Program-made: the position numbers and the translations under genes | In this document: positions 9,392 through 9,569 of the stretch, one piece after another | Position numbering within the stretch: position 1 is the first letter of the stretch | Layout of the letters: each line of letters begins with the position of its first letter | Origin: a virus | DNA: 64,000 nt | Virus record (IMG/VR): IMGVR_UViG_3300020045_010841 | Location: 68,389-132,388 of that record | Reading direction: 5' to 3' (one strand) | Notes under the pieces: generated by a model | The model's input: the letters and a program-made list of their open reading frames with translations, nothing else | What the model was told of the DNA's origin: nothing | The model's database searches: none

Positions 9392-9420
9392 ATAAAAAAT
9401 CCGTTCTTTTGGAACGGATT
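9392..9420 (-). terminator. intrinsic terminator (attenuator) just before the first tRNA
   Basis: AATCCGTTC-CAAAA-GAACGGATT followed by a T tract. Confidence 0.75.
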
Positions 9421-9446
9421 CGAATAGTATCTTTAAATTACTACTA

Positions 9447-9569
9447 TCAAACTCCGATTCCTCCTTGGGTTTCCGGTTTTAACACTACTTTATTATAAAT
9501 AGACATACCGGACCAATCACTATGATTTAGCGTTCTAAACGATGCCTGTATGTTATTATAATTTTTCAT
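9447..9569 (-). CDS. putative 40-aa attenuator leader peptide
   Basis: MKNYNNIQASFRTLNHSDWSGMSIYNKVVLKPETQGGIGV*; uses 19 of 20 amino acids; 3' end can pair with the terminator 5' arm. Confidence 0.6.
   Translation of the reverse strand: MKNYNNIQASFRTLNHSDWSGMSIYNKVVLKPETQGGIGV

Follow-up and report, generated by a model that had tools for sequence, protein, structure and literature searches.

A conserved leader open reading frame and terminator at the entrance of a phage tRNA array: a candidate ribosome-mediated attenuator

The 64,000-nucleotide stretch of virus DNA analyzed here (positions 68,389 to 132,388 of the IMG/VR record IMGVR_UViG_3300020045_010841; hereafter, the window) makes up the last 64 kb of a 132-kb record (G000), which is about 80% complete by the record's own estimate, and carries on its minus strand an array of genes encoding a near-complete set of tRNAs. 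Directly ahead of the first tRNA gene, we detected a compact module that consists of a 40-codon leader open reading frame (ORF), a small AT-rich hairpin and a GC-rich hairpin with the signature of an intrinsic terminator. On balance, this module is probably, although by no means certainly, a ribosome-mediated transcription attenuator located at the entrance of the phage tRNA array. The case for this interpretation is built on the sequence elements, their conservation, alternative pairings found in silico and a codon bias, all of which are observed directly; translation of the leader, termination at the hairpin and the choice between two RNA folds are predicted from these observations.

The leader ORF (9569..9447; all components of the module are on the minus strand, and their coordinates are given in the direction of reading) comprises 40 codons (9569..9450, MKNYNNIQASFRTLNHSDWSGMSIYNKVVLKPETQGGIGV) and the TGA stop codon (9449..9447), which is followed in the same frame by TAG, TAG and TAA (9446..9438). 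An open frame of 40 codons is, by estimate, uncommon at this AT content. The encoded peptide uses 19 of the 20 amino acids, with only Cys absent, exactly as described in a preliminary description of this DNA that was made from the sequence without database searches. The same description placed an intrinsic terminator shortly before tRNA-Thr, and such a hairpin is indeed present: a stem of 10 pairs with the loop CAAAA (9421..9397; 5' arm, 9421..9412; -11.7 kcal/mol), followed by TTTATTTAAA, with the T-rich tract (9396..9387) evident both from reading the sequence and from the terminator scan. This is the strongest of the 11 terminator-like sites identified in the scan of positions 2000 to 12000 (4.5 expected), and no further strong site of this kind was found by the scan on the minus strand from 9397 to 2000. 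The end of the stem is separated by 13 nt from the first gene of the array, tRNA-Thr (anticodon TGT; 9383..9312; Rfam RF00005, 41.6 bits), which has a non-canonical T-loop and is missing from the 18 tRNAs listed by ARAGORN with default settings, whereas a relaxed threshold recovers it. The second gene is tRNA-Ser (TGA; 9208..9118, identified with ARAGORN), and tRNA-Gln (TTG) and tRNA-Pro (TGG) come next.

Between the ORF and the terminator lies the small AT hairpin (9448..9423), in which GATAGTA and TACTATT flank a 12-nt loop and which holds the stop codons. When the 3' arm of the terminator is omitted, the minimum free energy fold pairs GGAATCGGA (9461..9453; codons 37-39, ending 3 nt before the stop codon) with TCCGTTCC (9418..9411) around this hairpin, which thus forms the apex of a candidate antiterminator. 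The 3' strand of the antiterminator overlaps the 5' arm of the terminator (9421..9412), so that the two pairings are mutually exclusive. The preliminary description had noticed that the 3' end of the ORF can pair with a region that includes the terminator 5' arm, and folding reproduces this pairing not only in the window but in all five genomes in which the module was found.

These genomes are, besides G000, a 175-kb IMG/VR record (G001) that was reached via the ligase (76% identical), a 180-kb record with terminal repeats (G002) that was reached via an upstream gene for a 162-aa protein, and two fragments, G003 (loci L043/L058) and G004 (locus L048), that were reached via the peptide together with the terminator. 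The terminator-pattern scan of IMG/VR yielded 23 loci, of which 13 were scanned for tRNAs and two of these (L058 and L048) have arrays; among the 10 loci left out of the tRNA scan, L055 is the G002 record. In all five genomes, the order of elements is the same, namely a -7-like box, the ORF, the AT hairpin, the GC-rich terminator, tRNA-Thr(UGU), a promoter-like site, tRNA-Ser(UGA), tRNA-Gln(UUG) and tRNA-Pro(UGG), with tRNA-Thr located 0-13 nt past the T tract. The preliminary description had suggested looking for a conserved ORF with a terminator ahead of tRNA arrays in relatives, and the arrays of all five records begin in this way. The gene just upstream, as far as can be judged by reading, differs (an 85-aa ORF in the window, a 76-aa ORF in G001, a 263-aa ORF and three tiny ORFs in G002, a homologue of the 162-aa gene in G003 and another ORF in G004), which suggests that the module travels with the head of the array and not with the upstream gene. 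Pairwise DNA identity between genomes is 0.62-0.88 for the leader versus 0.56-0.69 for the tRNA-Thr gene behind it (window, 9312-9383; L043, 1693-1766; L048, 2790-2864; L003, the G001 locus, 3057-3129; L042, the G002 locus, 1292-1363). The tRNA-Thr gene may have been replaced, or may evolve fast while the leader is kept.

The terminators of the relatives contain 8-10 pairs, with stabilities of -11.2 to -12.7 kcal/mol over the five genomes, and the two arms change together: AATCCG/CGGATT in the window corresponds to AACCCG/CGGGTT in the others, with a T-A pair in place of C-G, and in G001 one T-A pair is gone from both arms. These compensatory changes were read from the sequences, because differences in loop and spacer lengths cause the MAFFT alignment of the 3' part to set the terminator arms in different columns. 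The AT hairpin has counterparts of a different sequence at the same place (TAATG/CATTA in G001 and AATGATT/AATCATT in G002), and its loop sequence, GTAATTTAAA, is common to four of the five genomes. Outside these records, one of four DNA sequencing runs yielded a near-identical 151-nt contig over 9397-9525, and a freshwater metagenome contig with a loose end at 9386 contains a near-identical tRNA-Thr preceded, at the position of the terminator, by a GC hairpin and T tract of a different build, which suggests that further natural variants of the terminator exist. A metagenome scan returned a single contig of 1151 nt that ends short of the module.

Once the terminator 3' arm is left out of the fold, a G-rich segment at the end of the ORF becomes the partner of the 5' arm in all five genomes, and this upstream partner tracks the arm: it is GGAA-T-CGGA in the window (8 pairs and one bulge), GGAACGG in L043 (7 Watson-Crick pairs), TGGAACGG in L048 (8 pairs), GGACGG in G001 (6 pairs, with the same A lost as in the terminator arm) and AACGGG in G002 (6 pairs). 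The duplex of the window has a free energy of -10.8 kcal/mol, which is matched by 78 of 2000 dinucleotide shuffles of the upstream 62 nt (P = 0.039); the counts for the five leaders are 78, 28, 15, 43 and 253 of 2000 (P = 0.039, 0.014, 0.0075, 0.0215 and 0.127). As a natural control, one rule was applied to all terminator-like hairpins of G000, G001 and G002, giving 47, to which the leader terminator of G001 (-11.8) was added to make 48; the rule had missed it, as the T tract can be drawn into its stem. The three leader terminators rank 1, 2 and 4 of 48 by upstream complementarity (window, -10.8; G002, -9.8 kcal/mol), and among the 12 terminator-like hairpins of the whole 132-kb contig the duplex of the window is the strongest. 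The sole other hairpin in that range is on the minus strand of the G001 contig near 167445 (-10.0 kcal/mol; in the truncated fold, just 3 of the 9 bases of its arm have upstream partners) and could be a second switch or a chance occurrence.

The position of the stop codon fits a ribosome-operated choice, the upstream strand ending 3-5 nt before the stop codon in four of the five and 15 nt before it in G002. When pairing is forbidden within the 30 nt centered on the stop codon, the predicted fold contains the terminator in five of five leaders, and when the 3' arm is held single-stranded, it contains the antiterminator in five of five. Masks placed earlier in the ORF give the antiterminator at equilibrium for most positions in the window and L048, for some in G001 and for none in L043 and G002; the best terminator fold lies 1.9-7.6 kcal/mol below the best antiterminator fold. 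The geometry of attenuation proposed in the preliminary description is thereby borne out in its structural part: the module and the pairing are both present in all five genomes, the pairing covaries with the terminator arms and it is specific among the 48 hairpins.

Under the attenuator interpretation, transcripts from the upstream promoter-like sites would carry the 40-codon leader ORF, which is expected to be translated, and GGAATCGGA at the end of the ORF would be able to pair with the terminator 5' arm, forming an antiterminator tipped by the small AT hairpin. During smooth translation, a ribosome at or near the stop codon at the time when the terminator is made would cover GGAATCGGA, and the hairpin would terminate transcription before the tRNAs. 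If the ribosome lagged behind, stalled earlier or was not loaded, the antiterminator would form first and transcription would proceed into tRNA-Thr and the later tRNAs. The position of the ribosome would thus select between the two folds, and the sensed signal would be the supply of tRNAs with uridine at position 34 (U34) or, more broadly, translation capacity in general. The likeliest stall points would be the very rare TCG, ACG and CCG codons, the decoding of which would require U34 tRNAs like those specified by the first genes of the array. No conserved anti-antiterminator (1:2) pairing that would sequester the upstream strand was found in free-RNA folds of the five leaders, so that, in contrast to trp, read-through is predicted when the leader is not translated.

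A homologous ORF is present, in one copy each, in all five related records (40, 40, 37, 35 and 44 codons), with the ATG-AAA start, the frame and the length preserved and with indels that are multiples of three. The ratio of nonsynonymous to synonymous differences (pN/pS) in the first 26 codons is 0.4-0.75; in the tail of the ORF, pN is equal to or greater than pS in comparisons with G001, and the ratio is near 0.7-0.8 in comparisons with G002. A profile search against 5.8 billion proteins detected 12 clusters, two of which are those of the window and of G002 themselves and 10 are new (37-41 residues), whereas a profile search of IMG/VR with the 15 peptides of the resulting family found two known loci only. 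Among 13 close members of this family of 15, residues 1-32 are well conserved and the final eight are free to vary; QGGTEV, GSKTRTGI, SQKGGGTWT, IIKGEDDLV and KPNTGMGI are tails seen in the new peptides. AlphaFold2, run with the 15-row alignment, predicted no secondary structure for the peptide (predicted local distance difference test score, pLDDT, 54.6), and a search of the peptide against PHROG produced no family match. This pattern of conservation is closer to that expected of a regulatory frame than to that of a folded protein, with a short functional peptide also possible; to us, what is kept appears to be the open frame rather than the peptide. A type I toxin peptide was considered and rejected given that the leader peptide, by reading, is hydrophilic.

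The use of almost all amino acids led the preliminary description to suggest a general sensor of tRNA depletion that responds to stalling at almost any codon. The diversity is modestly unusual (P ~0.01-0.05 each): 19 amino acids are used in 11 of the 15 family peptides and 17-18 in the other four, whereas 19 distinct amino acids are reached by 0.8-4.8% of length-matched random segments and by about 2% of random 40-residue segments of the proteins of this phage. The family peptides share ancestry and are not independent, so that the diversity is modest evidence. The any-codon proposal is therefore only weakly supported, the codon signal being narrower than it implies and the control, as discussed below, being expected to gate strictly only tRNA-Thr. 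The four tandem stop codons, which were part of the same description and are present in the window, are retained only in the two closest relatives; a designed feature was rejected because they are not conserved beyond these, and since they are part of the AT hairpin, we do not count them as a feature of their own.

The narrower codon signal concerns the NCG codons, which account for 0.98%, 0.80% and 0.41% of the codons in three genomes. The leader of the window contains TCG (9542..9540, codon 10), ACG (9533..9531, codon 13) and CCG (9476..9474, codon 32), and all three codons are found in each of the five leaders; the chance of this, given the amino acids of each leader, is 8e-5 to 1.5e-3. The positions shift by lineage (TCG at codons 10, 8, 16, 16 and 8; ACG at 13, 10, 13, 13 and 12; CCG at 32, 32, 29, 28 and 11). 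By codon position 1/2/3, the CpG dinucleotides of the leaders are distributed 0/18/8, with 18 of 26 in the NCG frame. Codon adaptation of the leaders is low (3rd-29th percentile of 40-codon windows), and the G+C content at third codon positions is 0.23-0.37 vs 0.16. TCG, ACG and CCG need U34 (or C34) tRNAs for Ser, Thr and Pro, respectively, and the array starts in all five genomes with Thr(UGU)-Ser(UGA)-Gln(UUG)-Pro(UGG), so that the Ser, Thr and Pro tRNAs that correspond to the rare codons are at positions 2, 1 and 4. The presence of these codons in every leader points to sensing of the U34 tRNAs of the array head rather than of all tRNAs. Given the near-complete tRNA set of the array and the 19 amino acids of the leader, a specific match between codons and tRNAs extends no further than the rare NCG codons and the tRNAs at the head of the array.

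Several promoter-like sites surround the module. The most upstream one, P1 (9718..9687), consists of TTAG, 20 nt and the -7-like box TATATTTA, and overlaps the stop codon of the 85-aa ORF; it is not listed by the TTTG pattern scan because TTAG replaces TTTG. The P1 box (TTCGTATATTTA) is also found upstream of the module in G001, L043 and L048. Just past P1 there is a 9-bp hairpin (9677..9657, ATTAAGGTA-TAT-TACCTTAAT), which has a counterpart of the same place and length and wholly different sequence in G001 (L003, ~2741-2761) and is absent from L043 and L048. A weak second -7-like box, CATATTTA (9594..9587), is located 17 nt ahead of the leader ATG, and in the relatives TATATTTA is found 6-19 nt ahead of it; this box may act as a promoter. 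The third site, P3 (9284..9253; TTTG, 20 nt, TATATTTA), precedes tRNA-Ser, and a promoter-like site is present at this place in all five genomes (window, G001, G002, L043 and L048), in agreement with the suggestion of the preliminary description that internal promoters partly bypass the switch; the sequence is of the Bacteroidota type. The interval between the terminator and tRNA-Thr contains no promoter-like site, and accordingly tRNA-Thr needs read-through. From tRNA-Ser onward, the array has its own promoter-like site, so that the switch would strictly gate only tRNA-Thr and would contribute additional read-through transcripts of the remaining genes. We also considered a tRNA-Thr promoter within the leader and rejected it, since the terminator would lie in the path of its transcripts as well.

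In the window, there are 16 matches to the pattern TTTG-N18-21-TAnnTTTA (7.18 expected), and none of 100 shuffles reaches 16; 10 of the 16 matches are on the coding strand, and nine of these 10 share YRTATATTTA. A recurrent form of this element, TTTG-N19-20-(T/A)TC(G/A)TATATTTA, is found on the minus strand at 3881-3911, 5125-5155, 5948-5979, 9253-9284, 23529-23560, 23648-23678, 23858-23889, 36819-36850 and 61397-61428, with many copies in G001 as well. The -7 box of flavobacterial sigma-A is TAnnTTTG (PMC9723704), and the box of the recurrent element ends in A where the consensus has G. The same source describes the promoters of Bacteroidota as unusual and these bacteria as not using Shine-Dalgarno sequences (PMC9723704). 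The recurrent element is probably the main class of promoters by which this phage engages the host sigma-A.

In the relatives, the interval from the first promoter-like site to the leader ORF contains tiny ORFs that overlap one another, one to three in number and 13-38 codons in length (L042, the G002 locus, 1642-1888, minus strand; L043, 1327-1457; L003, the G001 locus, 2795-2850). These tiny ORFs are Gly- and Trp-rich and contain purine-rich, GGAGG-like stretches, and some terminate in NGGIGV or NGGTEV, with the following ATG overlapped in the form GTATGA. In the window, they are lost except for the last 12 nt (9621-9632, GGGAAGGATAA).

A number of observations weigh against the attenuator interpretation. 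The conservation of the AT-hairpin loop sequence is not explained by a model that involves the ribosome only. The overall stability of the 217-nt leader is ordinary (z = -1.34; 21 of 200 shuffles fold as well or better). As free RNA with a 15-nt 5' flank, four of the five leaders adopt the terminator at equilibrium, and when folded from the ATG, three adopt the terminator and two the antiterminator; with the terminator favored at equilibrium, the model needs kinetic control, as in known attenuators. The pairing in G002, where the partner lies 15 nt before the stop codon, is the weakest of the five (P = 0.127). The tail of the window leader, QGGIGV, resembles the tails of the tiny ORFs of G002 (NGGIGV and NGGTEV), which do not adjoin a terminator, and part of the upstream complementarity may accordingly stem from a repeated motif. 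The Thr codons, 2-4 in each leader, form no run, so the leader is not of the classical amino-acid-specific kind, and a Thr-specific classical attenuator was rejected for the lack of such a run. The NCG pattern was noticed only after looking at the data, and CpG could be favored by RNA structure, which makes this signal supporting rather than decisive. The promoter-like site before tRNA-Ser leaves most of the array independent of the switch, and the well-kept first 32 residues also fit a peptide with its own function. Only three independent lineages stand behind the comparison. In the sequencing runs searched, the sampled words were present to a fraction of at most 0.13, and the contigs carry no RNA information.

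Some of these observations would be expected if the module were simply a small phage gene equipped with a promoter and a terminator of its own, with a peptide that acts in trans and with tRNA-Thr transcribed by leaky read-through. In that case, the terminator would end either the small unit or the upstream operon, and the complementarity would be a by-product of G-rich repeats or an effect on mRNA stability. Such a gene would account for the conservation of the N-terminal 32 residues in 13 of the 15 family members, for the fact that the ORF is called by gene callers in public data sets (12 clusters), for the G-rich tails that the G002 tiny ORFs share away from terminators and for the terminator being the equilibrium fold of most leaders. 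However, the pN/pS values (0.4-0.75 for the core, close to 1 for the tail) indicate weak constraint for a functional protein, neither an AlphaFold2 fold nor a PHROG match was obtained, and the module is linked to tRNA-Thr in five of five genomes while the upstream gene changes; furthermore, the leader terminators rank 1, 2 and 4 among the 48 hairpins for upstream complementarity, and the enrichment of the rarest codons at shifting positions would be left unexplained. Taken together, we consider the small-gene explanation unlikely.

The conserved loop would be more readily understood if an RNA-binding protein of the phage or the host, or an RNA such as uncharged tRNA, bound the AT hairpin and its loop and thereby stabilized or blocked the antiterminator, with the ORF being secondary. 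Indeed, GTAATTTAAA is retained in four of five genomes whichever frame or stop codon covers it, the stem varies in sequence yet stays paired, and the two folds are close enough in energy for a small binding energy to decide between them. A factor of this kind does not, however, need the conserved open frame, the start codon or the in-frame indels, does not explain the rare-codon bias and has no candidate binding protein identified; moreover, an Rfam cmscan of 1..14000 with E up to 1 produced 22 matches to tRNA models and a few chance hits, none of them in 9384..9600, T-box and known leaders included. We therefore regard a factor-dependent antiterminator as distinctly improbable. An element for processing or stability, in the context of RNase III, RNase E or RNase P or as a 3' stabilizer of the upstream mRNA, with no regulated termination, appears very improbable: the hairpin is set against the 5' end of the tRNA (0-13 nt) in five genomes and tRNA precursors need 5' processing anyway, but a GC-rich stem with at least 6 T in 9 is the standard signature of a terminator and is conserved, and the ORF, the mutually exclusive pairings and the codon bias are not required for processing.

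If the ribosome-mediated attenuator is accepted, one can further speculate that it works as a self-regulating decoding gauge and a sensor for counter-defence, such that depletion of host tRNAs would cause stalling and transcription of the full tRNA set, whereas plentiful phage tRNAs would let the terminator close the entry. Depletion might then result from starvation, from phage-induced decay or from an anticodon-nuclease defence. This extension, including these causes, is tentative, and we consider it possible rather than probable.

The setting of the module is that of a low-GC phage genome. The GC content of the window is about 29%, and almost all long ORFs are on the minus strand; among the gene products are GroEL, nicotinamide phosphoribosyltransferase, glycosyltransferases and an ATP-dependent ligase. 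For the ligase, the best match in cultured phages is that of Caulobacter phage Cr30 (37.5% identity). A blastn search with 9200-10500 against 50,697 phage records gave no match, and searches of IMG/VR with peptide patterns found no relatives of the 85-aa and 248-aa neighbor ORFs; distant relatives of the 248-aa ORF (29% identity) come only from phages of Flavobacterium (29 records) and Cellulophaga (2 records). From these relatives, together with the Bacteroidota-type promoter-like pattern, we infer that the host is a low-GC member of Bacteroidota. Within the tRNA array, there are three HNH-endonuclease-like ORFs on the minus strand (3162-3920, 4424-5107 and 6011-6511), of which the 166-aa one has a Pfam HNH match of 3e-14 and the other two have weak matches; all three are probably homing endonucleases. 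Several unrelated small proteins end in YEIY, and the DNA TATGAAATTTATTAA then provides, or directly adjoins, the start codon ATG of the following gene (MKFI...); such junctions are found in the window at 9715-9735 (the end of the 85-aa ORF) and at L003 2349-2369, L036 4719-4739 and 6920-6940, and L042 2725-2745, so that this type of gene junction is present in G001 and G002 too.

The classical leader-peptide attenuators are those of amino-acid operons (trpL, hisL, thrL, leuL and pheL), to which the pheST leader can be added. The module resembles the trp/his class in that a short leader ORF and an intrinsic terminator precede the regulated genes, the antiterminator shares the 5' arm of the terminator, and the stop codon is placed such that a terminating ribosome would block the antiterminator and a stall upstream is predicted to cause read-through. 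Unlike this class, it is phage-borne and would regulate tRNAs instead of enzymes; the candidate control codons are single TCG, ACG and CCG codons instead of a run of codons for one amino acid; and no clear 1:2 anti-antiterminator is present, hence the read-through predicted for the untranslated leader. T-box riboswitches bind uncharged tRNA directly and need no translation. A choice between terminator and antiterminator that reports the status of tRNA would be common to both, but there is no Rfam T-box match here, and a T-box riboswitch was rejected for this reason.

Among translation-coupled systems, the closest parallels come from antibiotic resistance and from a cellular tRNA array. In Bacillus subtilis, stalling in the upstream ORF (uORF) of the antibiotic-resistance gene vmlR leads to formation of an antiterminator and prevents intrinsic termination (PMC9226507). 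The vmlR uORF comprises 3 codons inside an anti-antiterminator hairpin, and the mechanism involves NusG-dependent pausing and responds to antibiotics (PMC9226507). As in vmlR, a stall in a short upstream ORF would let the antiterminator form and the induced product would help translation, whereas the phage ORFs are 35-44 codons long, the antiterminator is proposed to be covered by the ribosome itself and the product is tRNA. Leader-peptide attenuation has been reported as likely in Flavobacterium psychrophilum (PMC9723704). In Anabaena sp. PCC 7120, the trn operon, a supernumerary tRNA array, is expressed more strongly when translation is impaired (PMC8421152, PMC10272220), under the control of TrcR, a ribbon-helix-helix protein repressor that acts at transcription initiation (PMC10272220). 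Both arrays tie tRNA genes to impaired translation, as proposed here for the phage, but the Anabaena array is cellular and governed by a protein repressor, whereas the viral array would be governed by a leader ORF and a terminator. The TrcR-controlled array is the only published tRNA array induced by translational stress that we found in the portions of the literature consulted. Our literature search, which also covered attenuation in Bacteroidetes, found no description of a leader attenuator ahead of tRNA genes, those of phage arrays included; nor did it find an account of homeostatic, translation-coupled control of tRNA genes or of a counter-defence sensor of the gauge kind outlined above.

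Control of the expression of tRNA arrays by phages is, to our knowledge, largely unknown. These arrays have been discussed as aids to codon usage and as a counter to defences that target tRNA (PMC10264068, PMC11555353). If the attenuator interpretation is correct, phages of Bacteroidota would have adopted the logic of the trp and his leaders as a measure of decoding as such, with feedback on the supply of tRNA. The element is only 190 nt long and directly testable, with clear mutational predictions. It also provides a search image for other phages, namely a promoter, a tiny ORF with rare codons, a copy of the terminator 3' arm in the end of the ORF, a terminator and a tRNA gene.

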